DNA of 60,012 nucleotides, the filler included, from Dugesia japonica (Eukaryota): assembly GCA_001938525.1 (NCBI GenBank). It is 5 parts of 5 records of this genome, joined end to end, with 100 filler letters (N's around TTAATTAATTAA, not from the genome) between each part and the next. Parts side by side here need not be neighbours in the genome. Positions count along the whole stretch, not along the records: positions 1 to 10,493 come from MQRL01613364.1; 4 more parts are not named here. One strand, written 5' to 3'. Within the stretch, counting starts at the first letter, position 1. Every line of letters begins with the position of its first letter. The notes beneath the pieces were generated by a model, which had not been told where the DNA came from, ran no database searches, and worked only from the letters and a program-made list of their open reading frames with translations. The translations under genes and the position numbers were made by a program. Below, in pieces: positions 1 through 48,280 of this stretch.

Positions 1-1055
1 ACCAAAATTATGAATCGCTATAGGCAAAATAATAATAGAAGCTGTTAATATCACTACTTTTATTTTTTTTGTATTATAAATAAAGAAAGCAGGAACTACA
101 ACAATTTATTTAAATAAAAAGATTACCTCAGTAGTGTTAACTGCATATAAATCCACAAATGATAATCATCCAATTTTGATAACTAGTACACCCTCTACTC
201 AATGAAATTCTGCTGATTTTAGAAATTTTTCATCGGTATGCCCACACAAAATGTAGATAATCAATTGAATTTTCCAACTCTACCACAGAAACCGATAGGA
301 CTTGCAAATAGCAGTGGGAATGGCATGGTAGTAAAATCTCAAATTATATTACTCCATTATTTTTGTAAGCACGGATAAATAAACCCAAATAGTGTGTCCA
401 CTCAATTTGGATTTTCTTTACATGACGTCATGCACACTAACATGATCGACATTGGCACACCGGCTGTCAAGGGTGCAGTACCAGGCAACGTCAACGCGAA
501 AAATTTTTAAAATAATTAAGTATAAGAAATTGTTTGTATTTTTGATTGAATTTGGTATTAATGATAATGATATCTTTATGAATTTCCAGTCTTACTGTTG
601 CTATTAAAATTATCGTTAATATTATAGTGATGATGACACCCGCATGGAGGTGATTTTCTTGTTTCATCATTTAACCACTCGACTAATCCATATTGCCATT
701 CGGATTTTATGGAATTTAGCATTCTGTATTATAAAGTAATAATTGAAAGTGGAGACAGGGTTTTCCATCGTCAAGGTGAATACCAGTTTGACACCGAGTT
801 ATAAAAAGTAGTTATTGATAAGTTTGTTTCATTACCTATTACTATGACAATATTTGTTGATAATACTATTGACTGCCATAGAAAACTCAATAATTCCCTG
901 ACACTGGTTCACGGCCTCAGTTGTAACGCCCATGTGTATTACTTCCCGTCGGGATATGATTCTCATATTGCCACGGAAGGACGGAGAAATTATCTACGTT
1001 AGGGGGGTTAAATATTGACATTATCATGGNNNNNNNNNNCTCCACTTTTTAGCTA

Positions 1056-1238
1056 ATGACAGCCGAATTATATCAAATCTTGCGTTGGATAAAGAAGCAA
1101 CGACAAACTAGCCGGTCCCGACAATTGCTGGCCCATCTACTGACGAAAGGAAATATTGAGCATCCAGACGAAACAGATCTGAGTTGCTTTGTAGAAATGT
1201 TTCCCTTGACAACGAACACCGATTTAGACGCAGAATGA
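1056..1238 (+). CDS. Element A ORF1, 60 aa orphan (EHPDETDLxCFxEMFPLT)
   Basis: Homologue at 7144-7338(-) with synonymous changes. Acceptor TTTTAG ends at 1052, ATG 3 nt later, AATAAA at 1265. Confidence 0.7.
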   Translation: MTAELYQILRWIKKQRQTSRSRQLLAHLLTKGNIEHPDETDLSCFVEMFPLTTNTDLDAE

Positions 1239-1355
1239 TCCCTGTTGTTGTAGTATTATCATGAAATAAATTACATGCGCAGTCTCGTTGATATTTTTAC
1301 GATTGCTTATGAAAATTTTGTGATACTCTAATAATTCTCATACTTTAATTAGGAA

Positions 1356-1712
1356 ATGGAATCTATTTGGGAACGCACAGTGGATCGTCGTACTCGTAGG
1401 ATAATCTTCAGGCGGCACCATAATTCCCACAACCGGGATGCCGGCGTCTTGGTCGACCGATCAAACCTACCCCCAGTAGACTCAATCGTGGCTAGCATCC
1501 AGGATTTTAGCGAGCGTCATCAATGCCGAACTTGGACCGGCCCTGTACATTCTTTGGTCACCTCTTTCCAGTACCGGCCTGTGATGCCACCCTCAGCTCC
1601 CGCCGTGCAGGCTTTTATTTCTAACCTGCTCTGGGGGATAAGGGAGCCTTCGGGTAGTGAAAACTCCGAGAATACTGCACCTGTGTTGAATCCATCTACT
1701 ACGTCTCAGTGA
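1356..1712 (+). CDS. Element A ORF2, 118 aa orphan (MESIWERTVDRRTRRII...)
   Basis: Homologue at ~6678-7012(-). Acceptor ends at 1352. AATAAA at 1757 is followed by a GT-rich tract. Confidence 0.7.
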   Translation: MESIWERTVDRRTRRIIFRRHHNSHNRDAGVLVDRSNLPPVDSIVASIQDFSERHQCRTWTGPVHSLVTSFQYRPVMPPSAPAVQAFISNLLWGIREPSGSENSENTAPVLNPSTTSQ

Positions 1713-1935
1713 GGAGGGGGTGCAATCGGGGGAACTTATCTTGATAACCTGTTTAAAATAAATGTTTTGTGTAATTTCTTAAAGGATTTGTTCTTGTGTT
1801 TGTTTGTTGTTTTTATGAGTTGGTAAGACAACTCAGGTAGTCTAGTACTTAAATAACTACACCGGTAATTATTGTTTTTTGTTGGAATTTAAAATCATAA
1901 AGACTAGGGCTGAGTTACACATAATTTTCTTTTAG

Positions 1936-2303
1936 TGCATTCCTCCTTAAACCGTCAACTGGCCCTTAATAAGCGGATGAGAGAATCCAGCGAGGACATC
2001 GAAATGTCATGGGACTTATATCAGCTGGCGAAACGACGATTCGAGGCCGAAATAGCCATTGCCAATGCGAAAGTAAAACGCTACAAGAAAAAGGGCATTA
2101 ATGTACGCCAAGAGATGGAAGCTGCGCACAACCAAGAGAGACTGTGGAAGGCACAGGTCGAGTCATTCGCCGAGATCACCGTGAAAATAAACTGGTTAAG
2201 GATATCTTGTGTCTTAAAGAAAAGTCGTACCTTGAACCCCTCATGGTTGATAAGGATACGCAGACAAATTCCACCCGATGTACCTAGACCTTCTGTCCTA
2301 TAA
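1936..2303 (+). CDS. Element A ORF3, basic coiled-coil-like orphan. Exon begins TG after the acceptor
   Basis: Homologue at ~6100-6476(-) (WDLYxLAKRRxExEIAxAN...QVESFAEI). Acceptor TTTTCTTTTAG, AATAAA at 2303. Confidence 0.7.
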
Positions 2304-2423
2304 ATAAAATTTGAATATGTATTAGTCTTTGTCGTCATACATATTACCTACATTTCAATTAAATAAATCCAAAACTGATAATATTCTTTATCTTTTCTCC
2401 GTTGTTAATATGTAATTATTTAG

Positions 2424-2805
2424 TGCCACGGATCCATCTTCCCAGCAGCATCCGAAGGTGCCATCGTATTATGCGACGACTTCTGATCGAAAGGCACTTA
2501 AACGTAAGACAGACAGGGCCCTTCTCAAACATCTTGCACAGCGGGACAAGCTTATAAAGAAATTGGACTTCATCGTTAAAAAACAAAACGATTTAGCGAT
2601 ACAAACTAATGCGCTAGAGACTGAAAACAAGCAGCCGCTGATGAGGAAGATCGATTTTTTAAAGCAGTATATCGCTGATCTTTCCCGTCAGATTGGCAAT
2701 CCAACTTGGGTCCAATGGGAAGAAAACGACGATATCGCCGTTTTTAACTTTTCCGCGACCGATCCGGTTCAATAGTTAGATCCAGGAGCACTGGATTTAT
2801 TGTAA
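2424..2805 (+). pseudogene. Element A ORF4, basic coiled-coil orphan with a 1-nt frameshift (~2500) and a premature TAG (2773)
   Basis: (A)TG-PRIHLPSSIRRCHRIMRRLLIERHL aligns with the open copy B (MPRITFPNSIRRYHRIMRRLLLE.HL). B reads QWLYLEALDLM where A reads Q*LDPGALDLL. AATAAA at 2825. Confidence 0.7.
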
Positions 2806-3062
2806 ATATTTCTTCGGTTTATGAAATAAAGGTATATAATTAATATGGTGTTTTCTTTCTTCTGCTGATAATAATAGGGAAAAGAACGAATCTGAATACA
2901 AAGGTTTATGGGTGAGTACCTCCCATTAAGCGCGATGTCAACCACCGTAAACTGAATACCTACCCTGAAGACGGTAGGTTAAATTCTTGAACGGTTTCCC
3001 CTGAGGGCTGTCTTTCCCCAGCCGCATTTTTATCACCATCCGACTCAGGTGCAACCCCAACA

Positions 3063-3065
3063 ATA

Positions 3066-3115
<50 letters not shown>

Positions 3116-3165
3116 NNNNNNNNNNNNNNNNNNNNNNNNNNNNNNNNNNNNNNNNNNNNNNNNNN

Positions 3166-3210
<45 letters not shown>
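3063..3210. repeat. (AAT)n microsatellite with internal N gap
   Basis: Direct reading. Confidence 0.95.
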
Positions 3211-3211
<1 letters not shown>

Positions 3212-4099
3212 TGTTATGTGACTTTTGAGTACTCATCGGATTATCAACTTCAAAATTCAACACCATAGTACAATTTATTTCAAATAAAAACTATAAACAT
3301 AAATTTGCTTTTTGGATTTTTTTTAAATATTATTATTATTGTATTATTATATTATTATTATAAAGCTTTTAATTATGCTTTGTTAATTTCATCATTATGT
3401 CTGTTTAGTGAATTTGGAAAACTCATCGAATCATTAAAATCAGAATTCAACTCCATAAATTTATTAAAATAAAAACTATAACAACACTAATTGTATTTTT
3501 AAATAAATTAAATTCCTGTTTTAAATTGGTGATCGTTTCTTAAGATTTTTTAAAAATCTATTTAAAGTTATTTGATTTTTTGAATCAGATTTTAAAATAA
3601 ATTTTCAATTTATTTATTAAAACTTTTTATGAAAACATTGGATTTTTTATTCAGATTTTTATAACAGATTTTCAATTTATTTATTAAAATTTAATGTCAG
3701 AATTTACAACAATTACCAATTCATCATTTAATTTTACATTTCAACTTAAATCTTTATCAAAAAAGATTTCGAGAAAAACGATCACTAACCATACCGAAAT
3801 TTCAACTCGCTTTAAACATACTCACAATGTTGTTGTATTATAAGTTTTAATGTAAGTTTACTTTATTTACGGAACAAATTTTACTACAATCTGATTGGCT
3901 GGTCAATCAAATTTCAGATTATCAAGTAAGATTTCATTATTTTGTCACAGTTTTTACCTGTAGCAGCAGAAAATCAAAGCCCTAAAATTTTACTAAGTAG
4001 TTATGCAGATAACTACAGGTCACTTTGTATATTTTACGTGAAATTAGGAAAGATTTTGATGCACTTGAACAACAAGCAAAAAACACGTTGTCAAATACT

Positions 4100-4710
4100 G
4101 AATATAGAATTTCCAGAAGGATAATAAGAAGTAAAAGATAGGGGAATTACGAAAATCCATCTGAACCTGATGAGTCAGACGAACTCTCTTCAAGAGATAA
4201 ATTTAGGATAAAATCATTTATTTCTATATTAGATGAACTAAAATCAAATTTATTAAAAAGAGCTTCTGTTTATGATTATGTATTGAAAATATTTTTCTTC
4301 CTTTCCGATCTTTCATTATAAAAAGTAAAACTTCAAAAATGTGTTGAGCTGTTAATGCAACAATTTACAGCAGATGTCAACCAAAATCTTATTGAAGAAC
4401 TATTTCATTTCCACAAACGTGAGACAAACGCATACAGACTTGTATCAAATAATATTCATAGAAAATATTCAAGTGGCTTTCTCCAATGTGGAATCAATCT
4501 TACATCTGTTTCTCAGTTTAATAGTCACTAATTGTACTGGAGAAAGGTCATTTTCAAGATTTAATAATATCAGAAACAGAGTGACGACAACGAAGTTGTT
4601 TTCATTGAGTATTTTGTGTATCTAAAATGAGACCTTCAGAGAACTAGATTTTGATGAACTTATAGAATAATTCCGCGTGAAAAAGTTTTGAAAGAAATTG
4701 TTCTAATCTT
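4100..4710 (+). pseudogene. hAT transposase C-terminal (dimerisation domain) remnant
   Basis: FSNVESILHLFLSLIVTNCTGERSFSRF resembles the hATC motif. Contains stops and frameshifts. Confidence 0.75.
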
Positions 4711-5619
4711 TTTCGTTTTAAATGTATACTTGGATTGAATCAGTATCTGGATTTTGTTTGAATAAAGTTCATTTTTGGTTTATGACTTAAAATCTATCAT
4801 AATTTATACTTTAAATGCATAATATTATGAAATAAATTTATCTGAATTGAATTTGGTTTAATCTTCAATGTGATAGATTTGATAGAAAATATGATAATTT
4901 TTATTGCGTATTTTATTTTCGTAGTCAAAGATATTCATTAATTGAATTTTATTTTTTTGTAAATGTTGTGTGTTATGTTTCATTAGTTCTTGTTACAAAT
5001 ACTATTTATATTGCTGAGAATAAATGTTCAAATCAGTGTTCTCGACTTTTTTTTATTAATTATCCGTGAAACATTTTTATAAAGGTTAGTACCAATCATA
5101 ACTTGTTTCATTTAACATATTGATATATATCACAGTAATAATGAATTTTACTATCTCTCATGAAATTTACATTCTTAAAAATGGAAAGTGAAAAAACCTC
5201 ATAAGTGGAATAACCTAGCGCCTCTTCATCTACATGCAGCCCTGCCAGTATTTAATGCTATCTTAAATACATGTTAAAATAACGTATGTCCAGCATGCAA
5301 CACATAAGGCATAGTAACGTACACAGATTTGTCACATGATGCATACATTTAACAGAATTTAAGTAGAGGTGTTGGGGTTCCACCTAGGTTGCACGAAGAA
5401 AAACGTGGCTGGTGGAAAAACAGCCCTAAGGGGACCCTTTCAAGAATTAAATCTAACGTCCCTAGGTTAGGTATTCAGCTTATGGTGGTTGACCTCTTAC
5501 TTAATGGGAGGTGCATGCTCATAGGCCTTTGGATTTGGGTTCGATATTTTCCCTCTTATTCCAAATAAAACACGAGAAAAAAGAAAACTAAACTAGACAC
5601 ATTTTATTTTATATAATAA

Positions 5620-6002
5620 TTACATCAGATCCAATGCCTCCAGATATAACCACTGATCTAGGTCGGTTACCAAGAAATTGAAGGCGGCGACATCATCGTT
5701 GCCGTTCCATTGAACCCAGGTAGGGTTTCCTAATTGTCGTGAGAAATCGGATAAATATTGCTTGAGGAAATCAAATTTCCTTTGCAGCAACAATTTATTT
5801 TCATTCTCTAATGCTTTTGTCTGCGCCGCTAAGTTGTTCTGTTTTTTCACAACCTGATCAAGTTTTTTGATGAGGCGATCTCGTTGGTCTAAATGCTTGA
5901 TAAGAGCTCTATCGGTTTTCCGCTTTAAATGGNGTTCTAATAGGAGGCGGCGCATTATGCGATGGTATCTGCGTATACTATTAGGAAAAGTGATGCGAGG
6001 CA
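5620..6002 (-). CDS. Element B ORF4 (open, ~127 aa, basic coiled-coil)
   Basis: Homologue of 2424-2805. Acceptor CTTTTAG|TG CCT, with AATAAA downstream. Confidence 0.72.
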
Positions 6003-6099
6003 CTAAAAGATATTAAGTTAGTAAATAGGCAGTTTAGCAAAAACTATCAAATAATACACCAATAACTGAATTCACAAGAATGATTAAATGATACATTTA

Positions 6100-6476
6100 T
6101 TTAAGAAAACGAGTGGGGTCATTTCCGAAGGGTTTGAGTACTTTTCTCAATCATCAACGGCTCGAGACGTATCCTCTCCTTGAGAATTAAGACATCCCCA
6201 ACCAATTTATTCTCTCAGTCATGACTGGACCGGAAATTTCTGCAAAGGACTCAACCTGTTTTTTCCACACTCGCTCCTGCATGTGAGAGGCTTTGGCTTC
6301 CTTTTTAAAGGCGATACACTTTTTCTTGTACCGAAGTACCTTACTGTTTGCGGTGGCAATTTCTGTCTCACAGCGTCGCTTTGCAAGACGATAAAGGTCC
6401 CAAGTTATTTCTTGGTCCTTGCTGGTGTTCCTTATCATTTTGGTGGGAGCTGACGGACGGTTTAGAGAGGAATGCA
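6100..6476 (-). pseudogene. Element B ORF3 (stop at 6187 truncates it relative to A)
   Basis: Acceptor TTTTGTAG|TG CAT TCC has the same phase as in A, and the protein is similar. Confidence 0.65.
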
Positions 6477-6677
6477 CTACAAAATAATAAGTATTTTTAT
6501 TCAAAATATCATCATCAGAGTTACCGAAGCACACGTAACCCTTCTTATTACTTTATCACGAACAAAAATTCGTATAATACTGAGCTTAATTTGGAAAGAA
6601 AGGAGGTCGGTTCGATTGAGACAACTACTTAATAATATCAACAAGAACATAAACATTAGACGACAACAATATAAACA

Positions 6678-7012
6678 TTAGTAGTCAGGGGTCGTGTCCG
6701 CTGCAGGAACGGTGTTTTCTGAATGCTCCGCACCGGAGGGTTCTCTAGCGTTCCAGAGCATGTTATTGATGAAGTCTTGCACCACTGGGGAATGCGCCAG
6801 AGGTTGATAATGAAAAGGGGTAGCGTGGTTACGCTCTGGCCCGTTCCACTGTCAAAAATTCAATCGCTCACCGAAGCTTTGGATGCGAGCTACTGCAGCT
6901 TCAATGGGTGGTAAGTTTGACCTATCGGAAAGGATACCCGCGTCACAACTATGCGGATTCTAATGATACGGCGGGTTCGTCTGTCAATGGTTCTTTCCCA
7001 AATAGACTCCAT
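6678..7012 (-). pseudogene. Element B ORF2 (frameshift and internal stop)
   Basis: MESIWERTIDRRTRRII, then in a shifted frame DAGILSDRSNLPPIEAAVARIQSF...VQDFINNMLWNAREPSGAEHSENT, matching ORF2 of A. Confidence 0.7.
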
Positions 7013-7143
7013 CTTACAGGTACTGAATAAAAAAACAGGGTTTAATTATCAAAAGTAAGACAGATAAACAATGTCATCAATCAAAACTACACAACCATCC
7101 AAGCAAATTTTTATTTTACGAAATTAACAACATGAGCGAAGGT

Positions 7144-7338
7144 TTAGCAAGATTCGTTTCCCACATCTAAATTCACCGTATTTGTCAGGGGAAACATTTC
7201 GGCGAAACAGGCTAAATCTGTTTCGTCGGGGTGTTCCACATACTCTCGTGATAGGATATGAGTAAGTAGTTGTCTCAATCGAACCGACCGCCTTTCTTTC
7301 CAAATTAAGCTCAGAGTAAGGGTAAGTTCCTCTGACAT
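7144..7338 (-). CDS. Element B ORF1, 64 aa
   Basis: Homologue of 1056-1238. Acceptor TTCTTTAG|ATA ATG, with AATAAA downstream. Confidence 0.7.
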   Translation of the reverse strand: MSEELTLTLSLIWKERRSVRLRQLLTHILSREYVEHPDETDLACFAEMFPLTNTVNLDVGNESC

Positions 7339-9899
7339 TATCTAAAGAACAAGTCATCAGCATTTTAAAAAAACAAAATGGCACGCAGGTTACTTTATGC
7401 CGGTAATAAATAATATAACTGTCATAATTTCTAGTAATGTATTAATTGAGGTAATAGTATCTAATGATCTCGGAACTCATTTAGTAAAGGGTTAATATCA
7501 TTATAGCGTCAGGATTAGTAAGAATTCTCATAACACGAGCGGGTTGAAAAGCGTTTTCCTGCTACCGGGGAACGTTAGGAGTATTTTTTGGACCCTACTC
7601 AGGTTGATCGCAGTGATGAATTTACTTTCTCCAAGAAGGCTTTCATCCATTTATTTTCATAATTACAGATATTATATTCTCGTCCCCTAATGAGACGAAA
7701 ACCATTGCATCAATAACCAGAAAATTAGATCTTTAACCACGATAGTGAAACTTGGAAATAACCCAAAGGGGAAGCAATCTGTTGACAAATCTATTCGGGA
7801 TGATTTAAATAATGATCATAATACATTATAGCAACAATATCTAAATATTCCTAAAAATAGCTCAATTAATTATATTACCGATATTGATTATCAAAAAAAA
7901 TTTGCTTGACACAAATAAAGGGTATATTAATTATAACAAACAAATGCATACACACTCCTTAACAACAAAAAAATATTCTCACGATCAACTTAGCAGGATA
8001 ATTTCTTACAATAAGAGTGATATTGATGATTGGAAGTTGACGGTGGTGTTTCACCGGGACGTGGTTGACGAAGAAAACCAGGTAAATTCTACTCAAATGT
8101 GACGATGAGAAACGTGTTCCGTACCCGTATGAAATAGCGAAAGTTGACAATCACACCATAATATCCTTTTAGATGAGAATATTGGAAGAAGTTCTCAGTA
8201 ACCTCTAGAATGAATAATCGCACTACTATTTCTGTCAAGGAGATTATCACTATGAATTTCCATTTTCCTAATCGCAGTTACATCGAAATACTTTCCATCG
8301 TAATTGATGGCTTCATTTTTTTGTCTTTTACAGAATTAGTTAATTGTCAAAGTATTTAATAGAGAACTAAAATAATAAATTCCGGTGTGATTAAATGATT
8401 GTGTGGGGATGACTCAGTACATCCACACACCTACTCGTAATCGGTTTTGCCAAAAACACTATCGATTTGTTGATGAAAAGATTGCTAATAAGAGCAATCA
8501 TTATGATATTTTATTAAAGATTGTCCTGAAAATCCGTTGGCACGTTGTATGTATTTATAATGGTGGTATTAACGACTATGGCAAAAGCTATTAATAGTAA
8601 CAAGGGAAAGTCATTATTAGCAAGAAACATGATTCCTCTTCCCCAAAAATTAGTATATTGATTTTGTATTGTTTGGGTCAGTTTGGGGTTCAATATCATT
8701 ATTAATTCGCTAAACATATAAAAAATTTGATTATCAACAAAATGAACTAAAACATGATTAACCATAATATATATTATCGACAATAAATTTCCATTTTGCT
8801 TATAATAATCGATACACAAATAATCATAAAAATTGATACTCACTGATTTAAGTTATGGATAACTGCAACGGTTCGATTCCTGAATTATCGGTTGACAACA
8901 GCGATTTGCTTTACTTTGTTCCTTTTCTACCTTTAGGTTTAAAATTAGTCTTGGATAGAACAACGATAAATCACTTTATTCAACTGATAGGGCAATACAA
9001 GTAAAAGTAATGCGCGATAACTTGTTACAACTTTCTCTGAAATTTATAAGTTTACAAAATTGATAGATTGATTCACGATTTTAACCAATAAAGTGTTGAA
9101 AATTCTGGTGAGTGTTTTTGTTGGTTTTGTTGTTATTTTTGCTGAATTCTGGGGGGTTAAATTGCTGTTCCGATGCAACTTGGCATAGTTGTTATTGGCT
9201 GGTTATTTTTTACTTCCAAATGTCTTGCTTTGATTAGTGATGCTCCTAATTTTTCGATTTTTTTGCAGAGTCTTAGAACTCTCATTGGTGTCTATTTTCA
9301 GAACGCCATGTGATCATTGTGACTTAGTTTTATGTTTATTTTCAGGTTCTTATTGACCCAATTTTCAAACCCTTGTGGTGGTTCTTTTGATGGTTGCGAA
9401 GTTTTCAGGCTATGAAATTTAAATGTCTTTTAACATTTTTTTCTCGAATTTTCATTCCTTGGGTCTCTGTGATTACCCAGAACCAAGTTATTCGTAAAAA
9501 ACTGATTTTTGATTAATTTAACTTTATTTTCATTTTTGAAATTAATTCTGATTTTGGATAATTAAATATTTTTTCAATGATATTTTCCTTGTCTTTTATT
9601 ATTAATTTCACTATTTCTTTTGATTACTATAATTAACATGGGTTAGATTGGTTTACCCGAGAACTGCTTATCAATTACTTGATATTTTAATCTTTTATTT
9701 GATCACTTTTTCCAAATTTAGCCGCACTGGTTACTCGGAACTGATACTTGAGGAGTTGAATTTTTTTTCTCTTTTTGGGTCCTTCGTTTGGTTTTCCTTT
9801 TAAAAGGAGTGTTTCACCCCAATAGAGGGATAGTATGAGTAATAGCAGGCACATATTAGGTGAACCCCTCACCGTGACGTAATGAAATTTAATCCTAAT

Positions 9900-10493
9900 G
9901 CATTTAGTTGGGAAGTTTAAAAATGATATCATATTAAGTAATATGACGAAATGGGATTAAGTGGCTATGGATTTTCTCTGTGTATTTAGTTGGGAAAATT
10001 TTTGCACACAAATTATGCAATAAGATTAATTTCATTGTCGAGATTTTTACATAATGGGATTAAGTGGCTTTACATTTTCCTGTGGTTTTAGTTAGGCAAA
10101 TTTTTCAAAGTTTATTTTGCCGCAAAGTGGCTATATATTTCATTAAAGTTTTAGTTGGGAAAATTCTTTAGGCTTATTAGCAATAATGTGGTATCTAACT
10201 TTTCCTGTATATTTCATTGGGAATTTATTCAGTAAAGTGGAATAAGGTCAATTTTTTATTGGTTCATGGGAATTTAGTCTAAAATTTTCTCGATGAGGTT
10301 GAATAAGATCAATTTTTGGTTGGTTCCGGTGAATTCAGTCAGATATTTACTCGGTAATGGTCAGTTTGGGCAAACTTGGTCAATTTTAAGTAATTTATAG
10401 GCGATTTGGTTGAAAATTTAATCAGTAATGGTCAATTTGAGTAATTTTTGATTGGTTTAGGTAGTTTTTGTCTTACGTTTCATCGGTGAGGTC
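9900..10493. repeat. Degenerate tandem repeats (GTGGCT..ATTTTC..TTTAGTTGGGAAA and GGTCAATTTT..TTGGTT units)
   Basis: Recurring motifs read by eye. Period not computed. Confidence 0.5.
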
Positions 10494-10593
10494 NNNNNNN
10501 NNNNNNNNNNNNNNNNNNNNNNNNNNNNNNNNNNNNNTTAATTAATTAANNNNNNNNNNNNNNNNNNNNNNNNNNNNNNNNNNNNNNNNNNNN
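10494..10593. other. Artificial contig spacer N44-TTAATTAATTAA-N44 (also 21169-21268, 31030-31129, 45772-45871)
   Basis: The identical 100-nt structure occurs four times, and the core has stops in all six frames. Confidence 0.95.
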
Positions 10594-11530
10594 TTATGAT
10601 TTTACGGAATATCTAATTTGTGAATGATTTCGCAGAATATGTAATTTGTTTATTGTTCTGCAAAATATGCAATTTGTTAATGATTCTACAAAATATGTAA
10701 TTTGCTAATGATTTCACAGAATATGTTATTTGTTAATGATTTCACTGAATATGTTATTTGTTAATGATTCCACAGAATATGTTATTTGTTAATGATTCTA
10801 CAGAATATGTAATGTAATAATGATTCCACAGAATATGTAGTTAGGTTAGTGATTTCTCAGAATATGTAATTTGTTATTGATAACATAGAATATGTAGTTT
10901 GTTAACGACTTTGCAGAATATTTAATTTGTTAAGGATTTTAAAAAATATCTAATTTGTTAATGATTCCATAGAATATCTAATTTGTTAATGATTTCACAG
11001 TATAATTTATTTGGTAATGACTCCACACAATTTGTAATTTGTTTATGATTCCATAGAATATGTTGTTTGTTAATTATTCTTTAGAATATGTGATTTGTTA
11101 ATGATTCCACAGAATATGTAATTTGTTAATGGTTCCACAGAATATGTAATTTGTTAATGGTTCCACAGAATATGTAATTTTTCAATGATTCCTCATAATA
11201 TGTAATTTGTTATTGATTTAACAGAAGATTTATTTTGTTAATGATTCTACAGAATATGTTATTTGTTAATGATTCCACAGAAAAATAAATTTGTAAATGA
11301 TTCCATAGATTATGTATTTTGTTTATGATTCCACAGAAAAATAAAATTGGTTAATGAGTAGGGGGATAGTAGCACACGGGCCCCACTCACATAGCGCTGG
11401 GTGGAGGGGGTGTTTCCGAGCCCCGGGGGGGGGTTCCGCCCAGCGCTATGTGAGTGGGGCCCGTGTGCTACTATTCCCCTACTTTAATGATTCCATAGAT
11501 TATGTATTTTGTTCATGATTCCACTGAATA
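10594..11530. repeat. 28-bp minisatellite, consensus GATTCCACAGAATATGTAATTTGTTAAT, roughly 30 copies
   Basis: For example, units start at 11103, 11131 and 11159. Confidence 0.95.
11357..11483. mobile_element. 127-bp GC-rich mini element with ~49-bp TIRs (AGTAGGGG...CCCCTACT) and 6-bp TSD TTAATG; Polinton-type ends
   Basis: Near-perfect inverted repeat. TTAATG at 11351-11356 and 11484-11489. Confidence 0.85.
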
Positions 11531-11919
11531 ATTTTTTTTAGTTTTCATTTAATAAAATTAACCGTATAATAACTAACACTTTTATTTTTTTTATTATGTC
11601 TTCATATACTTTTCAAAAGTATACTAATTAACTAAAATTTATTGTATTTCATGGGTTTTTTATTTATTAAAGTGTTCCTTCGAGCCATTGAATAATTTTT
11701 AAAGCGACTCTTCCTTGGTACTTTTTTAAAGTTTAGGAACGCTGATTTAAAAACCAATCAATGGGTACGTTCAACAATAAATCTCGCAATAATTCTTGTA
11801 ATTGTAAGAATATTCATTTATTAAAGTAATATTTTAATGTTTGCATTCTACTAGTTACTTTAGCAAAATATTGTTTAATATATTTTAATAGTTTGTGAAA
11901 AATATAACAATTATCTTAC

Positions 11920-12918
11920 CAATGCAAATTAATCGTTTTTCTATTTCTTTATATCTACAAACGCATTCATCTACATACCATTGTAGATGAGTTTCATATC
12001 TAGCTTTAATGCAGAAATTTAATTTACAATTAATTTTAGACGATGAACAATAATAAGTACGACTGTATAAAATTTCTTTTTTGAAACAATTTACAATCGG
12101 ACTCATAGTTATGTCAATTGTCCAATAAATATTATTTAATCTACATTTTGGAGAGTGTTTTTCAACAATAATACAATTGTTTCTACAATATTTTTTGATC
12201 TTTACATGTACTGGTTTGTAGCATGGACACCGAAATCTGTTTTCTTCTATTCTTTCTATACATATGCAGTTGATTGCAGTGGTTATTTTGCTCGTTATTA
12301 TGCACCATCCATCAGGAGTTGTTTCTCTTTCATTCATTGTAAAGTTTAAAGTTTTGTGACATCCAGAAACAATTGAAACGGATTCATCGATTCTTTTATG
12401 ACAGACATTTTTTGGTTTATCGATTTTAAAAGTAACTTTTCTTATTTTAATATAGATGTTCTTGAAACATGATTTTTTAACAAATGATTTACGACAACGA
12501 CATATTTTGTATTGTTTTTTAATAACAACTGGTGTACATTGCTTTGTTCTGTAATCGAGTTGTAATGTATATGTTGTGATAAGTTGATAATATCCTCGTC
12601 TTTTCTTACATGGCCCGATTTCAGTCCAAACAGAATTTTTTTTACGACCACAACATACCTTGTGCCGTTTAAATACTTGTTTGACACATTGACAACCTTG
12701 TCGTTTCAGACAGAACATTTCAATTGTTTGAGTATTTTGTATACATTTCCCGTATCTCCTTTCACAAATTCGACCGTCNCAATTAATTGGTGTATAAGTA
12801 ATTGATCTTTTTTCAGGACAACGATGTCTCACTAAATAATAGTTATACATGATGTTAATCAATCTACCATGTTCTTTGTCACACTTTTGTTCTTTACGTG
12901 GTCGCAAATGGCTACAAT
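11920..12918 (-). CDS. Exon (999 bp, phase 1-1) of a large Lys/Arg- and Cys-rich repeat protein
   Basis: Open frame with repeated CxC/CP motifs. TTTCAG acceptor and GTAAGA donor; length divisible by 3. Confidence 0.85.
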
Positions 12919-12964
12919 CTGAAATTATTTACTTATAATGTTAATAACTTTAAATAACGCAAAC

Positions 12965-13228
12965 CATTAAATAAACCAAAATCTGTAAAATTATGTAGTC
13001 TGTAGCATTCACAATCTTTGATAGCAGTATAATAATACACTATTTTAAAGGAAAATGGACTTGTATTTATTCGATCTTGAAGTTTCAAATGAGAACAATC
13101 AACTGTAAATCTCGATTCTCTGCGAACTGAATAACATTTGAAATTTACAAGCTGGAAATTTGTTGTATTAACAACTCTAGTATTGTGGTTTACACAACGT
13201 TTAGAAATGATTGGTTTTTGGCAGCATT
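12965..13228 (-). CDS. Exon (264 bp, phase 1-1) of the same Cys-rich gene, missed by the ORF track
   Basis: CCQKPIISKRCVNHNTRVVNTTNFQLVNFKCYSVRRESRFTVDCSHL...KDCECYRL. TTTAG acceptor and a 46-bp GT..AG intron to the next exon. Confidence 0.8.
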
Positions 13229-13589
13229 CTAAATTAAAATGTAAAGACTATGAAAATTCAATTTTATTAATTAATCAAATAAAATTATAATACAAATTTA
13301 TTTCTGGTGTTATCACGACAAAATAAGTATTTGAAATACAGAAGTAGTGTCTTTAATGACCGATAAAGAGATTACAAACCAATACTAAATATATTATTTT
13401 CTAGTAAAAATTCCTCAAAGCTTTAAATTTGGTTTAAAACAAAATGTTGAACATATCCATACTTTATTTGTTGTCTTTACTTAGATAAACAGCGTTTAAT
13501 TAATACAAATTTGTTAGTTAAATTACATATTTTAATTAAGTAATTGTATTTCTAAGTGCTTAATAATGTGCTAGATTGAATAACGCAAA

Positions 13590-14760
13590 TACTTGGGGGT
13601 CCTATAAGTCTTTTTGTATTTTTATTCAATAAATACATATTAAATAAAAGAAGAAAAAATAAATATTATGTCTCAAAATAAAGACCATTTGGATTAATGG
13701 TTTGAATCCATCCATCGCCAAGTTGCTGGATCCAGCGTTTATACCAGTCTTTGATTTTGGAGCTGAAAATTTCTTGGCACCTCTTTTGTACCTCATCCAA
13801 ATTATTGAAATATCGTTCTCGCAGAAAATGTGTCATAGACCGGAAAAGAAGATTGCCTGGTGGCGCGAGATTTATGCTGTATGTTGAATGTGGTAAAAGT
13901 TCAAAGGCATCCAGCTCCTTTATTTTTTACATTGTTTTCCTGGCAGTGTGCGGTTTAGCGTTATCGTGCTGTATAAGTATTCTCATTTGGTTTATTAATG
14001 CTGGATAATTTTGCTTTAATTTTGTGTACATCTCATCCAGTTGAGAGCAGTAAAAGTCTGCGTCAATGGCCACATTGTTTTCAAGAAGTTCGAAGTGAAT
14101 TACACCTTCAAAATTCCACCAAATGCACAGTACTACTTTTTAAGAGAACCGATCTCTCTTTGGCACCTAATTTAGTAATTGCCTAGGGCCAAGCCATTGA
14201 TTATGTCTTTTAGGGTTATCTAAGTAGACCCAATTTCTATCCAAAGTCACAATCAGGTGTATAAAACGAGCATCAGAAGAATTTAAAATCAGGTTTTGAC
14301 ATGTTTTCAAACGTTGTTTTATTTGATTTTCTGTCAATTCGTGTGGAATTTGTTGACAGCATCTGTTCACCTTGCCCATTGAACGAAGATGTCTAAAAAC
14401 TGATATCTTTGAAATACCGAGTTCATGAGATAATCTTCGATTGGTGGTCGATGAATTAATCTCCGTTCGAAAAATACATTCGAAATCCGTTGTTATAGAT
14501 CTGCCGGGTCGTGCTTGATCTTGAAGGTGATCCTGACCCAGATTAAATTTTTTGAACCAATTTTGAGCAACAGGAATAAAAACAAAGTCTTCACTTTCTA
14601 CCTAAAATATTTTCTAAGCCGCTTGAATTGCATTGACGTTTTATTCCAATAATGTAAATACATAACTAAATAAATAAAACCTTTCAAATAAATGGTAATT
14701 TAACAAATCAAAACAAATAACGAAACTAGTCATAATTGTACATTACAAAATGAGTTTATA
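13590..14760 (-). mobile_element. Mariner transposon remnant within an intron
   Basis: WFKKF..QDQARPGR, IPHELT (WVPHEL-like), IVTLDRNWV, LIQHDNAKPH and a decayed YSPDLAP. Boundaries approximate. Confidence 0.85.
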
Positions 14761-17108: not shown

Positions 17109-17357
17109 TTAATTTATTCTTAATTAACAGGGGAAATTATTTTCAGGGTCAAACTATGCCCAAACCCTGATATTATTTGTAAGCTAACAATAATTCCAGT
17201 AATTTATCAACAATTTATTAGCATATTGATGATTTAAAAAATGTTTAAAAAAATGTTATCTTGTGTTATAAGTGCTATTATAAGATATCCACAATTTTAT
17301 TTGCATTTGTGATATTAATTTTAATTATTCATTAGAATTATTAAATTAATTTCTTAC

Positions 17358-17732
17358 TATAATGAAGAATTTCTTTTCTCACAAATCTATCAACACATCG
17401 ACAATTTGAAACAATTTTTCTAAAATATGATCTGGAAAAATCGCATTCATTAATTTTTTTATCTTTAAATGTTTCATATTTTGGACAGAATATTGGTGTA
17501 AATGTTATTTGTGGTCGCTTAGGAACACAAATGTGACCGGATAATTCATAACCAATGTGAGTGGTTCTCCACATTTCAGTAATACATTTGGTGACATCAC
17601 TTATTTTCTTTTGGATATATTCTTTTATCACTTTTACACAACGACATTGCACTGATTTATAGGAAATTATTCTGTACCTGATAACTCTTCCTTTACAATC
17701 ACCAATCACTCTTTTCACAGGTTTTGGACATT
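17358..17732 (-). CDS. Exon (375 bp, phase 1-1) of the same Cys-rich gene
   Basis: CPKPVKRVIGDCKGR...CRCV...FCPK...CRCV. TTAAG acceptor and GTAAGA donor. Confidence 0.82.
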
Positions 17733-17756
17733 CTTAAATTATTAATTAATTAATTA

Positions 17757-19849: not shown

Positions 19850-20560
19850 GCGCTTTTATCTATTTATTATCATCTTTATTTTAATCAAAATTTTACAAAA
19901 TATATTGGCATATAAGTTCAGGTGATGAAAATAAGTTTGCAAAATCAGAATTTTGTAATATGAAAATAAAAATTCTAAAAAGATTCAATACAAATTAAAG
20001 CAAGAGATTGAAAAAAGGTGATGTTATTATAATAGTTGATATGTTTCAGGAGGCCGACCAGGATATGGACTATAATAATTTATTTACAAACATATCGAAA
20101 CATTGTAATGTGACCGTAATAATTCATTTTTCAAAATCTATTTCATCAAGGAAGTATTCATCGATCGCGTAATTTAAGTGTATAATACGTGATTATTTTT
20201 AAAATTCCGAGAAAATAAAACAGTTTTTTACCTAGACAGGCGTAGCCTAATAACATACAATTTCTCAAAAATTCATTTCAAGATGCAACAGTAAGTCCGA
20301 ATGGTTATCCTTTTCTCGAACTTAAATAAAATGTTTAACATTTAAAAAGTTATTTACGCGAGATTATCATAAATGTTGTTCAGCTTAATTTAAATGTAAG
20401 TAACGCTCAAAAGAAAGCATTACAAAGACAAAAAGATCATTATTATTGCTTGTAAATACCAATAATAACCGATTAATGAGAAAGATAATGTGTAAACAAA
20501 GTGGTGGCTTTATAGCTGCATTAGTATTAATTGCATTAAACACATTAAACCATTTGTGGT
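19850..20560 (+). pseudogene. Polinton fragment: decayed packaging ATPase followed by a small basic gene with QSGGF
   Basis: GDVIIIVDMFQEA..NLFT.ISKH.NVTV, QNLFHQG, HRSRNL..YVIIFKIPR, then MCKQSGGFIAALV. Confidence 0.7.
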
Positions 20561-24849: not shown

Positions 24850-27800
24850 GAAAGAAAATGAAAAAATCAATCAATGGAAGATATTAGGGACAAGAAGAGG
24901 ATATGAATCACAGTAATAACCAATGATTTTATAGAAAATCGGATTTTAATGGAGCCTACATTAGTCTATCGTTCAAGGTAGAAGATCACGAAATGAAAAA
25001 TGTTTACGTTTCTAAATATATCAGATATTAGGTGGAAAGCAAGGTTTTGAAATTTGAAAATTGTAAAGTGTAATTTGGCATACATGCTGAGTTTGAGAAG
25101 GATAATGGAGAGGAAAGTGTAGAAATTAAGTAATGGTCATGATCCTATAAGGCAATGGAATATTCTTCAAATTTCTTGGAAAGACTAACATAAAAAGCAA
25201 ATGAAGAAATATCGATATATTTGCAGCTCAGTAGCGAATAGAAAATTAGACGCATACGAGAGTTGCAGTTTATTTTGGTGAAATTTTCATCAGTAATATA
25301 TCTCTCAGGCCGGTCATATATTCAGAGTCCGATATCACTAGTTCGAAGCAAAGCACTTGTATTTGTGTATAATACATATAATAAATGCTTCATTTATAGC
25401 ATCTTGGCAGTGCTCAAGTACAATTTAGTTGGGGATAATCGTTATCGGCCGCAAAAATACAAGAGTTTTTTAAATGAATTGATCTATGATGAGCAGAGGA
25501 TACCAATGAAACTCATCAATATTCCAGAATTTGAGAGAAAAAATAATTTGTGGATAACAATATTCAAATATAACGAAACAGTTGATTTAAATGATTTGGA
25601 GATTTTATACAAAAATCCATATGTTGATTTAGTTTTTCACAGCAAAACCCTTAATCTACTAGTATTGAAAAATGAGCAAACTTTCTATTATACGGTTGTA
25701 AATTTGGATAGGTTATTAAATATACAGGTGGAGTCAATACAATGTTGAATTCAAAGAAAATGGTGCTAAAAATGTTTGCACGGATTTTATTCTCAGTCTA
25801 CATTTGATCGATATCTAGCCTGGTACACCAAAATAACTGACAAAACGACATTGTAAACAATGCCTGAAGAGAAGGAGTTGAAATTTAAAGATTACGAAAA
25901 GACAATAATACATGCATTTGTGATTTACGTGGATATTGAAGCAGTTCTAATTCCTGATGAGGCTGGTCTTGTAAAACATGTGACAATAACCTTGGAACCT
26001 TTGTTAATATCATTAATGGATATGACGAAAACACATAAATAATATTTTTCTCTGGCTCAAATTGTATGGTCGACTTTTTAAAATGCATTCCCCAGTTGGT
26101 TTAAAATCTTTTGGCACCCTGGAAATATTTTCAAAATGTACACATTGTTATATGTGCGGGAAGTATGGTAAAAGGCTTGATTGAGATCACGATCGTCTTT
26201 CCAGAAAATAACTTGGAGCTACATGTAATCTATACAACTTATCCAGGAAGATTAGAATTCAGTTGCATGTTGTGTTTTATAATTTTAATCACATAATAAA
26301 ATATGCACTCAATCAATTCAAACATTGGGATCTCACTCCGATCGCTCAAACAACAGAACAATTCCTGGCGTTATGTGCACATATCGGTGATAATGTCACA
26401 ATCAGGGTTATAGATCCATACCAGTTTCTGAGCAGTTCACTTTCATCATTTACTGCAACTCTTGAAAGCTGTCCAATAACAACATCTAAATTTATAGAAA
26501 GACATCAGTGAAAAGGCATATTCCCTTAAAAATTTGCAACGTCATATGAGATGATACTAAATCAAAATTCACTACTTCCACAATGGCCAGAAATAACGAA
26601 TCAAGAATATGAAATGGCGAAAGTGGCGTAGATAGAAGCTGGAAGCAATAATTTGATGGAATATATATTGCATTACATGAAGCCGGACTTATATTTATTA
26701 GCCGATGTATTTCAAACATTTCGTCAAAAATCACTTGAGGAGCATGGACCAGGGCTACTTCAATTCGTCTTATTACCAGGATTGAGTTGATCTAGTGTTC
26801 TGAAATCAATGGACAGACCAATAGAATTGCTCCAAGACCTAGAAATGCATCGCCTTTTGAATCGGGAATTCATGGGGAAATGACGTTTGTAAATATGCAT
26901 TACTTAAAGGCAGATAAAAATATTTTACTGCTTTATATTGATATTAATAATCTATATGATTGGGCATTAACACAGCCTTTACCATATATATACTTTGAAT
27001 TTATACTGGTGGATCAAATTAAAAAAACATCAGTAAATGTTATCTGATAATAGCGACGACGTGATTGAATATTTGCTGGAAATTGATCTTGAAATACCTT
27101 TGGAACACCATGATAGATTAGAAAAATTACCATTGGCTACGTAACATAAATGTCCACCCGGTTCAAAAGCGAAGAGCTTTTGATGACGCATAATCCGAAA
27201 TGTCATTATGTTATTTAGTGGAAACTTTCGAAATTGTATATAAAGCTAGAGGCTCATGTAATGTCTTTTCATAAAATTAAAAATTTCAAAGAGATGGAAA
27301 TATTCTCCAGTTACATAAATGAAAATTCGCCAAGAAAAGCAGCGTCTAGGACAAAATTTGGTAAAGATTTGTAAAAGTTATTAAACAATGCCCTTTATGG
27401 AAAGACGGTGGAGAATCTAAAAAAGCGAATGAATCTTTGGCTGCGCAACAACGAGAAGATTTTGTAATTTATAAGAGCAAAGTTACATTTAAAAAGACGT
27501 TGGATATCGCAGGTGGTTTGAAAGCTGTCTTGTTGGATAAAGACAATATTTATCTGGATCATCCAAGTTATATTGGTCAGGTGGTACTGGATTTGAAAAA
27601 ATATAGGATGTACCAGCTCCAATATGAAGAGTTAGAAGTGTATCGCTAGCGGTTCAAGTGTTCAATTAATATTATTGCTGGTGATACAGATAGTTTTTCT
27701 TTTCATGTACAGGAGTAGACAAAAACCGGCTTTTATCAGAAATGAAATCCGATGCTCTGCTGGATACAAATAATAATCCAAAGATCATCCGCTATACTCC

Positions 27801-30239: not shown

Positions 30240-30962
30240 GTAGTGATTTTCAAAATGCATTACCACTTGAAGATTTACCTAACATAGTGGAAGCGGTAAG
30301 CACACATCTGACACGACACAAAATAATCCCAAGTGGTGATCCAATCAATGTAAAACCGTATATACAACCAATAGGCTCAGAGTCTAAAACTGAAGAAGCT
30401 ATCTAAAACCTTTTCGAGAATAATATTATCCATAAATGCAACTCTCCATTTAATACTTCACTGATNNNNNNNNNNNNNNNNNNNNNNNNNNNNNNNNNNN
30501 NNNNNNNNNNNNNNNNNNNNNNNNNNNNNNNNNNNNNNNNNNNNNNNNNNNNNNNNNNNNNNNNNNNNNNNNNNNNNNNNNNNNNNNNNNNNNNNNNNNN
30601 NNNNAGTTCAATAGATTTGGGAAATGCAAACTATCAGGTAGAGCTCGAGAAGAATCTCAAGAAAAAAGGCGTTTTCAACGAAGCATAGACAATATTGTTT
30701 AAATAGAATGCCATTTGGCATCGCAGCAGCACCAGGGACATTTCAAAATATGATAACAAAAGTGTTAAACAGAATCAATGGAGTCATGGTTTATCTTGAT
30801 GACATCCTGATATTTACGAACAATAAAGATCAACACTATGAAGTAACTGAAAGAGTATTGACAGAAATATTGAAGGCTGGTCTAAGAATTAATCCAAAAA
30901 AGTGTCCGTTTCTTCAAAGCGAAATCAAGTTTCTTGGACACATAATTATCAGGGATGGTGTT
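30240..30962 (+). pseudogene. Gypsy/Ty3 reverse transcriptase fragment
   Basis: HKII..GDPINVKPY; SIDL; MPFGIAAAPGTFQ; VYLDDILIF; KFLGHII. Confidence 0.92.
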
Positions 30963-31029
30963 TGTAAGTAGTTTCCTCAGAATCGTTTATTTTGTTATTT
31001 GTTTCCATAAAATTAACACTTGAGTTGTA
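30963..31029. mobile_element. Start of a repeated TG-initiated element (TGTAAGTAGTTTCCTCAGAATC), probably an LTR; second copy at 45683-45771
   Basis: 22-nt identity starting at TG at both sites. Both copies run into spacers. Confidence 0.6.
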
Positions 31030-45871: not shown

Positions 45872-48280
45872 AAATATTCGCATAAATAATTCATCTACTG
45901 TGACCATCGAGCTCCCGCAGATATCTACTGAACTATGACCCAATTTGGTTATACACATCTAGTTGTTTGTTAATGAACTATTTTACATTGGACCAACGTT
46001 TCTTGTTAAAGTTGTTCGAGCTACGTCGATTTTCTCTGATTTTTGCACTTCGAACTATGAATAATCAGCTTGAGATNNNNNNNNNNNNNNNNNNNNNNNN
46101 NNNNNNNNNNNNNNNNNNNNNNNNNNTAAAGTTGTTCGAGCTACGTCGATTTTCTCTGATTTTTGCACTTCGAACTATGAATAATCAGCTTGAGATGCTC
46201 AGATAGATTAATTGCAATTCAATCGATTTTAACCTTGCAGTCAATTTTCTTCGTTTCTTCTCGTTACAGGAGGATCAAAACATCACGATTTCTCTATTGA
46301 ATCGATTCACACTAAATCCATTTATTATTTGACAATCATCTAGATTAACCCAACTTTCTCCGATGGTGTGCACTACACATTGCTCATAGTATCTCAATTA
46401 TTTCTTACTAGTCGATTATTCTCAATCAATTCGTTCATTTACGATTATTGAATTTAATTTGATCTTTTCCGATTGTGGATAAGTGAATCGGTTTCGTCAC
46501 TTTATTGTTATTCTCATCAACTCTATTCTCTCCGTCTATTATCAATTTCTTCACTTCACTATTGTTCATGTCAACTTTATTTTCTCTGATTATTGGCAAA
46601 TCAATCGATTTCTTCACTTTGCTGTTGTTCATATCAACTCTATTTTCTCCGATTGTTGGCACTAGGTAAGACTCATAACATTTCAATGATTACTAACGAA
46701 GGAACACGATTCATCACAGTCGGGACACTCGGCATCATTTGATTTTATATAATTAGTTTAAAATTAATGTATTCGAATGTATCAATAATTAAGTTTTTAN
46801 NNNNNNNNNNNNNNNNNNNNNNNNNNNNNNNNNNNNNNNNNNNNNNNNNNNNNNNNNNNNCCGTTAAATTTGTATCGTTGAAATAATTAGTCAAATTGAC
46901 GATTATCTAATTTTATCAAAAAGTAATTTTAAAATTAAAATTGAAAAAGTGTTGCTTTTTCTTCGAGTAGCCTTGTTTTATTGAGACTGTTGGGAAGGAA
47001 AAAACTGGCTCTCGATTAGCCAACCAATCACATATCACTTTGTGGAAATCTGATTACCCGATTGGAGGAGTTGGTGAGTATTCCTCTCTTCATAATGTTT
47101 TAACAATTTTTGTACACACCAACTTTTTGCACTGAATTTTATTTTTGAGTCACCTCATGTGACCTCTGATGAATAATTTCAGTTGCTATCGATGTTCCTT
47201 GTCTGAACTTCTGGTGAATAATCAGTTTCNNNNNNNNNNNNNNNNNNNNNNNNNNNNNNNNNNNNNNNNNNNNAAGATGACTGGACCAAATTAATTAATT
47301 CTATAATAATATTAAACGCTAATTAGCGTTATTTATAATAAATAAAACGGGTAGTAGAGACCCTTTTAATATATTATTGTATTATTGTAGATTATTTTTA
47401 TTATTTAATTTTTCATTCTCTTTCAGCTTATATAAATTCTACTTCTGTATGATGAAATGTGGGTCCTCTACGCTAAATAGCAAGTTTGGTGTATTTTTAG
47501 TTTCTTTAAAATAAACCTAATGGTGGTTTGAAAAAACTCATTTTCTTTAGCTAAAATTGCTCCATTGCGATTCCAGAGCAATCTGTTGTCAAGATATAAT
47601 CTCTATTTGGTTTGGTGTATTCTAACAATGTTGCTTTTGATAAGATATTTTTAGTGTTTTCGAAAGCTTCTATTGTTTAACTTCTTCAATTGATTTTTAA
47701 GTTCTTTTTTATTCTGTTGAAATTGTTTAGTGGATCAAGGATTTTTCTGCATTTTGGGATGTAGAAATGGTTTAGTCCCGAGTGATTTAATGTGTCCNNN
47801 NNNNNNNNNNNNNNNNNNNNNNNNNNNNNNNNNNNNNNNNNNNNNNNNNNNNNNNNNNNNNNNNNNNNNNNNNNNNNNNNNNNNNNNNNNNNNNNNNNNN
47901 NNNTTTTTGTGGGCCTTGCAATTAAAATATCGTCTAGGTAAGATATGGAATTTCGGTTTTCTTTTAGTATTTGGTCCATGAATCTTTGAAATGTAGAAGC
48001 TGCATTTATGAGTCCAAAAGGCCTCGTGTTATACTCATATTTATTTTTTCCATGTTTTCTTTCATGATTTGGATGTGATGGTATGTGTTTTGCAAATCTA
48101 TTTTTGTAAAATAATTGGCTCCATTTATTTTGTTAATTGTGTCTTTGATAATTGTAAATGGGTAATTGTCTGGTACCGTTATTTTATTTAACATTCTGTA
48201 GTCACCGCAAATTTTCTATTCTCCGTTTGCTTTTTGTTTGAACATTAATGCTGATGACTAGTTTGACTTTGATCGTTTTA
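45872..48280 (-). mobile_element. Gypsy pol remnant (RT, RNase H, integrase pieces) with downstream low-complexity repeats
   Basis: CGDYRMLNKITVPDNYP..YFTKIDL; SYLDDILIA; TTDA. Many gaps. Confidence 0.85.

Follow-up and report, generated by a model that had tools for sequence, protein, structure and literature searches.

A putative splice-assembled A|UG start codon in an array of small orphan ORFs at the end of a high-copy planarian mobile element

One end of a mobile element occurs twice in the window, the 60,012-nucleotide stretch of Dugesia japonica DNA analysed here, and carries in each copy an array of small orphan ORFs, two of which open with a bare TG after an acceptor AG. We propose, as the probable reading of the sequence, that a single A-ending, non-coding leader is joined in cis to alternative last exons, each with a poly(A) site of its own, and that the junction A|UG would start ORF3 and ORF4.

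Two inverted copies of one element end

The window consists of AT-rich eukaryotic DNA, with a GC content mostly of 15–35%, and contains microsatellites and transposon debris. The element end is present in two inverted copies, copy 1 on the plus strand (positions ~1040–3062) and copy 2 on the minus strand (~7440–5370), whose best-aligned parts are 68% identical. Each copy holds four ORFs, each with an acceptor AG (predicted from sequence) on its 5' side and a poly(A) hexamer on its 3' side, the latter being located for all eight ORFs either in the interval between the stop and the next acceptor or no further than 120 nt past the final stop. Both copies are decayed, the frame of copy 1 ORF4 being lost near 2497–2500 and that of copy 2 ORF2 after ~20 codons, and all copy-to-copy figures given below are comparisons between these two decayed copies.

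CCCAACA (TGTTGGG on the other strand) marks a common end base of both copies, beyond which the flanks are unrelated. This end is formed by a conserved non-coding terminal block, which in copy 1 (2870–3062, +) ends in CCCAACA and is followed by an (AAT)n run, and in copy 2 (5370–5560, −) has the same end point beside a different flank. RNA structure tests of the terminal block and of the ORF3 frame switch described below gave nothing unusual (z values of −0.25, −1.01, −1.49 and 0.03 across these tests). Upstream of the copy 1 array, a low-copy part (72–1029, +) with decayed frames at 238–507 and 637–999 probably belongs to the same element, and a contig of depth 5.58 appears, from equal depth values, to span from position 72 over the N gap. 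No alignment was found between 1–1030 and 7340–10500. A 60-nt inverted duplicate (95%) of the 5' part of ORF1 was observed in the ORF2–ORF3 spacer of copy 2 (6580–6639 / 7255–7314).

Positions 1–3060 were matched by 2,665 of the 10,231,477 contigs of DNA run X1, with a summed depth, which is not a copy number, of 21–86 at 1–1020, 108–9,915 over 1021–2958 and 51,735 in the last 100 bases. The element end is a large, interspersed, multi-copy repeat family. Across the final 300 bases the X1 depth climbs from 1,304 through 9,915 to 51,735, and the jump in the last bin (2959–3060) may reflect the presence of numerous short relatives that are non-autonomous, or of a short terminal repeat common to other subfamilies.

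ORF1 and ORF2 carry their own ATG

On the plus strand, copy 1 ORF1 (1051–1238) has its acceptor AG at 1051–1052 and its own ATG at 1056, encodes a 60-aa orphan and is followed by AATAAA at 1265, and copy 1 ORF2 (1351–1712) has its acceptor AG at 1351–1352, its own ATG at 1356, a 118-aa orphan product and AATAAA at 1757. Their minus-strand counterparts are copy 2 ORF1 (7144–7343), with the junction at 7341, its own ATG at 7338 and AATAAA at 7115, and copy 2 ORF2 (6678–7014), whose frame is soon lost. The junctions read AG|CTA ATG (1053) and AG|GAA ATG (1353) for ORF1 and ORF2 of copy 1, and AG|ATA ATG (7341) and AG|ATG (7012) for those of copy 2. When re-read, they bore out the first-pass annotation, which had placed an ATG 0–3 nt past an AG for both ORFs in both copies. 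ORF1 and ORF2 are open in phase 0, and their phase 1 is not conserved (18/71 and 14/8 codons); a shared upstream exon should therefore carry no AUG, or be non-coding. The same annotation had called translation of the array strictly splice-dependent, which is overstated for these two ORFs with their own start codon. About ten RNA reads of run X3 match the conserved core of ORF1 only (1163–1208), with unlike flanks, which suggests that a distant ORF1 relative is transcribed.

ORF3 and ORF4 open with TG after the acceptor

Copy 1 ORF3 (1934–2303, +) has its acceptor AG at 1934–1935, followed by TG at 1936–1937 in phase 1, and encodes a helical basic orphan, with poly(A) hexamers at 2303 and 2358. 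Copy 1 ORF4 (2422–2775, +) has its acceptor AG at 2422–2423, TG at 2424–2425 in phase 1, a break at ~2497–2500 and AATAAA at 2825. On the minus strand, copy 2 ORF3 (6187–6478) opens with TG at 6476–6475 in phase 1 and runs for 95 codons, with AATAAA at 6101 past its tail frame, and copy 2 ORF4 (5620–6004) opens with TG at 6002–6001 in phase 1 and has 126 codons open (one N), with AATAAA at 5608. The ORF3 junction reads TAG|TG CAT TCC in both copies (1936 and 6476), and that of ORF4 reads TAG|TG CCA CGG in copy 1 (2424) and TAG|TG CCT CGC in copy 2 (6002). With all eight ORF junctions re-read, the reported TAG|TG and a frame one base short of a codon stand for ORF3 and ORF4 in both copies.

Elsewhere in the window, TG follows an acceptor-like AG at only 20 of 333 sites, and TG occupies codon positions 2–3 in 44 of the 590 codons of these ORFs. 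Judged from these sequence counts, the TG at the ORF3 and ORF4 junctions is real and well above chance. Identity between the copies changes at the same point, from 18/45 before the junction to 29/45 after it in ORF3 and from 19/45 to 31/45 in ORF4, two ORFs that are unrelated to each other by blastp. A third acceptor-like AG|TG was noted at 628 (+), 9 nt 5' of a 121-codon frame (637–999) with one internal stop; its own TG frame closes after 7 codons, and the site is only a lead.

The 3' part of ORF3 continues in another frame than its head. This tail (2183–2266, +; 6214–6131, −, in copy 2), in the −1 frame relative to the head, is conserved in both copies, its 28 codons showing 14 synonymous and 9 non-synonymous differences in the tail frame, as against 2 and 22 when they are read in the frame of ORF3. 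The frame switch showed neither a slippery heptamer nor an acceptor common to both copies nor any unusual structure, and the tail may be reached by a frameshift, by splicing or through an overlapping exon. Both copies keep an AATAAA at this point (2186 and 6211), and within the coding part the X1 depth peaks in the tail bin (9,720).

Translation of ORF3 and ORF4 would begin at or before the junction

Between the two copies, the 15 codons from TG to the shared internal ATG of ORF4 comprise 2 identical, 9 synonymous and 4 non-synonymous codons, and the 12 codons before the internal ATG of ORF3 comprise 4 identical, 4 synonymous and 4 non-synonymous ones. Third positions account for 17 of the 28 differences in the two ORFs together (p = 0.003), for 10 of 15 in ORF4 alone (p = 0.009) and for 7 of 13 in ORF3 alone (p = 0.10). 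Moreover, the first six ORF3 residues are identical between copies, with silent changes. By this measure, purifying selection acts on the stretch of codons from TG to the internal ATG. Unspliced, the ORF3 and ORF4 frames meet stops 8, 26, 21 and 4 codons upstream, with no in-frame ATG between. Selection on the 5' codons and the lack of an upstream in-frame ATG together imply that translation would begin at or before the junction.

Silent sites are saturated between the copies, fourfold-degenerate sites being kept in 15 of 62 cases and G in 2 of 12. Given this saturation and the lack of relationship between ORF3 and ORF4, a TG at all four junctions is improbable under an arbitrary phase-1 coding exon, with a probability of ~3e-4, or near 1e-3 by our own estimate if one or two other noticeable patterns (e.g. 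AT|G) are allowed for. The pattern argues for a start codon NUG assembled at the junction; the TG statistic favours NUG, and not A specifically.

Proposed mechanism and candidate leader exon

According to our proposal, a single transcription unit near the element end would have the four ORFs as its alternative last exons. An upstream promoter would produce a short non-coding leader exon ending in A, which would be cis-spliced to one of several acceptors; we infer the splicing, the single shared donor, its base A and the use of the site at 8843 as the donor. Since every downstream exon is equipped with a poly(A) signal, each mRNA would carry a single ORF, with the junction A|UG as the start codon of ORF3 or ORF4, and with the own AUG of ORF1 or ORF2 0–3 nt past the junction.

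A candidate non-coding leader exon (8838–9186, −) lies upstream of copy 2, with a donor A|GTGAGT at 8843, TATAAA at 9048 and TCAGT at 8987. Located 1.5 kb upstream of copy 2 ORF1, this donor is the sole GT[AG]AGT of the element strand from 5370 to 11389. It has A at −1, a departure from the G that usually ends the exon before a donor, and the previous ATG is 343 nt back, the longest ATG-free gap in 7400–10450. A phase-1 stop lies one codon before the donor, and joining this leader to TG would place A at −3 of the AUG. Among 5000 shuffles of the region, such a site appeared in 185, 64 and 5 for 100, 150 and 300 ATG-free nt, respectively, the 300-nt threshold having been picked after seeing 343. 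A precedes 9 of the 32 GTRAGT sites of the whole window, an AATAAA (8980) falls within the candidate leader, and between 8843 and ORF1 there are weaker donor-like sites preceded by other bases.

The region 7440–8850 has no alignable partner in copy 1, so the 8843 donor may lie in DNA foreign to the element. No GT[AG]AGT was found 5' of copy 1 ORF1 within the window, as expected if the donor lies upstream of base 1. The first-pass annotation had envisaged a conserved A|GT donor upstream of the array; one candidate, the A|GTGAGT of copy 2, came to light, in a stretch without an alignable partner in copy 1. As for the shared exon ending in A that was to give ATG to ORF3 and ORF4, it is favoured by this A-ending donor and by the probable assembly of NUG at the junction, while the base A and one common donor remain inferred. 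Just past 8843, an acceptor-like AG is followed 10 nt later by the ATG of a 61-codon ORF with a hydrophobic stretch (8709–8517, −) and with a poly(A) hexamer AATAAA (8515) on its stop; the layout is that of ORF1 and ORF2, and this ORF is possibly a further last exon.

Alternative readings of the junctions

A near-cognate start would account equally well for the invariant TG and for selection on the 5' codons; in this reading, GUG or CUG is formed at the junction with a G-ending donor, or read in the unspliced TA-GTG, and ORF3 and ORF4 are weakly initiated at a non-AUG codon. Most donors end in G, and a genomic GTG is already in frame at all four ORF3 and ORF4 sites. However, the sole full-consensus donor found (8843) ends in A, non-AUG starts are uncommon for independent ORFs, and for the unspliced form the base at −3 is T or G and ORF1 and ORF2 also begin 0–3 nt past an AG, pointing to splicing of the whole array; we consider such a start unlikely. 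Quite unlikely, too, is that a phase-1 coding exon, shared or private, brings the AUG, with TG as the remainder of an ordinary codon. HTLV-1 tax likewise receives its AUG from an upstream coding exon. ORF3 and ORF4 are both in phase 1, and the arrangement is common: among the four iERV subclades named in the accessible text of bioRxiv 10.1101/2023.08.03.551782, three, e.g. ZAM/idefix, have env spliced either to a Gag peptide or to a short peptide. The first-pass annotation had named this exon as the alternative to its own proposal; it explains the fixed TG poorly: it needs a chance TG twice and a third-position G kept twice (hence the ~3e-4, less extreme if the codon is TTG), it throws ORF1 and ORF2 out of frame if shared, and the candidate donor at 8843 has a phase-1 stop one codon back.

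A polycistronic unit resolved by spliced-leader trans-splicing would fit the spacing of the array, in which same-strand ORFs with acceptors follow one another less than 300 nt apart, with ~115–225 nt from stop to acceptor and a poly(A) hexamer between, below the flatworm operon threshold of 300 nt given in the available part of PMC12582326. The flatworm spliced leader ends in AUG, as stated in the part of PMC9851317 at hand, and an AUG-ending leader is in frame with ORF1 and ORF2. At the ORF3 and ORF4 junctions, as had been pointed out earlier, the same leader is out of frame and opens only 4, 4, 20 and 15 codons in phase 0, so these two ORFs have neither a leader AUG in frame nor an AUG of their own, one of which each gene of such an operon should have. 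To our knowledge, no spliced leader ends in A, and trans-splicing appears very improbable. The same low probability is given to a start at the internal ATGs, with AG|TG as a coincidence or relic. The internal ATG of ORF4, 47 nt in, is aligned in both copies, and the 5' segment of ORF3 alone is not significant (7/13, p = 0.10). Against this reading, the 5' segment of ORF4 is under coding selection (10/15, p = 0.009), the first six residues of ORF3 are identical with silent changes, and the internal ATGs of ORF3 are misaligned between the copies (offsets 41 and 38). Selection on the codons that precede them hence disfavours these ATGs, which the first-pass annotation had set against an A|TG start.

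Products, database searches and RNA reads

The predicted products are soluble orphans of 60–126 aa without env homology. Models of ORF3 and ORF4, built from two-sequence alignments, are plain long helices, and ORF4 shows a basic stretch followed by a hydrophobic heptad series or long coiled coil, a pattern without a database match that we presume, by eye, to be bZIP-like. The ORF products are probably small nuclear regulators. All Pfam matches of the 5 cassette proteins and 9 further frames were below the curated cut-offs, ORF1 having been searched in Pfam only. Protein searches confirmed 0 of 1 candidate for ORF4 and 0 of 3 for ORF2, and the ORF3 profile gave 0 matches against 1.84 billion representatives. 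ESM Atlas returned nothing usable for ORF3; for ORF4 it gave bacterial leads, all below 0.9, and the ORF4 model had 0 matches at E ≤ 0.001 when compared with viral models by Foldseek. Pattern matches were confirmed in 0 of 219 cases in viral contigs and in 0 of 438 in metagenome contigs, with 0 matches in a further search of metagenome contigs; Rfam gave one chance match, and no tRNA gene was found. Three RNA runs with the same species label, 6–25% of each being compared with copy 1 only, gave 7, 23 and 10 reads, all less than 90% alike and without spliced joints, with 10 of 451 loose ends listed.

Class of the element

The terminus of both copies, at the one end examined, fits the LTR att consensus TGTTRNR/YNYAACA, as given in the accessible part of PMC3601003, and the Ginger-type terminus TGTNR is likewise matched. 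A high-copy integrase-type (TG...CA) mobile element is the best explanation, and we lean towards a Gypsy-like LTR retroelement. If so, the ORF array would probably be antisense to the genomic RNA, since introns and internal poly(A) sites are harmless, or easiest to keep, on that strand, and the antisense array would sit inside or just behind the 5' LTR. Up to position 20,000, neither copy was found to have a second terminal block or a matching target duplication, copy 1 leaving the window and copy 2 meeting an N gap at 10494. Near the terminal block there was no CA-TGG common to both copies that could serve as a primer-binding site; a purine run lies 5' of the block in both, without TG after it. 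The readable part of the element gave no Pfam match to gag or pol at the curated cut-off in the proteins and frames mentioned above, and neither gag, pol, a second LTR, a primer-binding site nor a target duplication was found linked to either copy.

Ginger DNA transposons resemble the element in their TGTNR termini and may keep coding-strand introns, but they measure 2.6–7 kb, encode one transposase and use CCGG/CCGT or RTATAY targets, according to the available text of PMC2836005. The flanks of the two insertions, the only ones compared, end in GAGG and TTAT, neither of which fits these targets, and no transposase was seen in the readable part of the element, which comprises one end.

Other features were observed elsewhere in the window. 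In very AT-rich DNA at ~11360–11480, a 28-nt tandem array is broken by a GC-rich, near-perfect inverted repeat identified by eye, with arms and a spacer of ~40 nt each. A large host gene rich in cysteine, in which CxC motifs recur, is represented by exons at 11885–13247 and 17341–17733 (−); these had no Pfam match above cut-off, and the longest exon had no homologue found. Segments at 4356–4625, 14167–14601, 25242–25748, 30642–30971 and 47686–48132 are presumably, by their motifs, remnants of hAT, mariner, Polinton-type polymerase and Gypsy reverse transcriptase-like sequences; 25242–25748, the sole remnant scanned in Pfam, gave no match.

Discussion

A split start codon in a retroelement is already known; new here is the proposed use of A|UG in an array of several genes. 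In the springer subclade of Drosophila errantiviruses, env is spliced to an AU dinucleotide, which yields the split start AU|G, as described in the accessible text of bioRxiv 10.1101/2023.08.03.551782. There, as proposed for the present array, a non-coding leader contributes to the start codon of a retroelement ORF that lies past an acceptor. Unlike springer, with AU|G and one env gene for an F-type envelope, the present junctions are N|UG, read as A|UG, and serve two unrelated orphan ORFs, within an array of at least four ORFs that have a poly(A) signal each and no env homology.

The extra ORFs of plant Gypsy elements (Grande, RIRE2, Retand), treated together with HTLV antisense transcription in PMC7264820, offer another likeness, being orphan accessory ORFs that selection maintains in most copies; they are often antisense and driven by a promoter of their own, and a role as nuclear regulators is suspected. 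They differ in lying between pol and the 3' LTR and in numbering usually one or two, and the available part of that account describes neither a split start codon nor an array of alternative last exons. The giant Gypsy elements of dugesiid planarians named Burro are LTR elements of very large size and high copy number, which carry accessory ORFs and reside in AT-rich genomes; their likeness to the present element is one of description only, and small spliced ORFs near the termini are not named in the accessible text of PMC6431247. Burro is recognised by its dugesiid host genome and by a gag-pol polyprotein of giant size that includes MATH, BIR and env-like domains.

The organisation proposed here recalls the adenovirus major late unit, in which many acceptors share one non-coding leader and alternative poly(A) sites are used. 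That unit, in contrast, belongs to a DNA virus, its ORFs mostly have their own AUG, and there is no homology. No described array of this kind was found in the literature searched, a coverage that excludes most subscription papers and repeat-database annotations, and the accessible parts of PMC8532177, PMC11410931, PMC13238120, PMC10309623 and PMC12582326 added nothing direct on such arrays.

More tentatively, and as a possibility that we regard as doubtful in its full extent, the array may be an antisense, adenovirus-late-like unit in the multi-kilobase LTR or terminal region of a high-copy animal retroelement, with the 8843 leader, four to six orphan last exons, and an A supplied to at least two starts (perhaps to a third, at 628). 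If this were true, the splice choice of the host would select and license single regulators, such as a bZIP-like coiled-coil protein, and one leader exon would serve as promoter module and also as start-codon donor to several accessory genes unrelated to one another. ATG-based annotation would miss genes of this kind, and unspliced or read-through RNA could not yield their full proteins. The split-AUG device of Drosophila env would then reach beyond a single gene to an array of several, and four orphan proteins maintained by purifying selection would be added.
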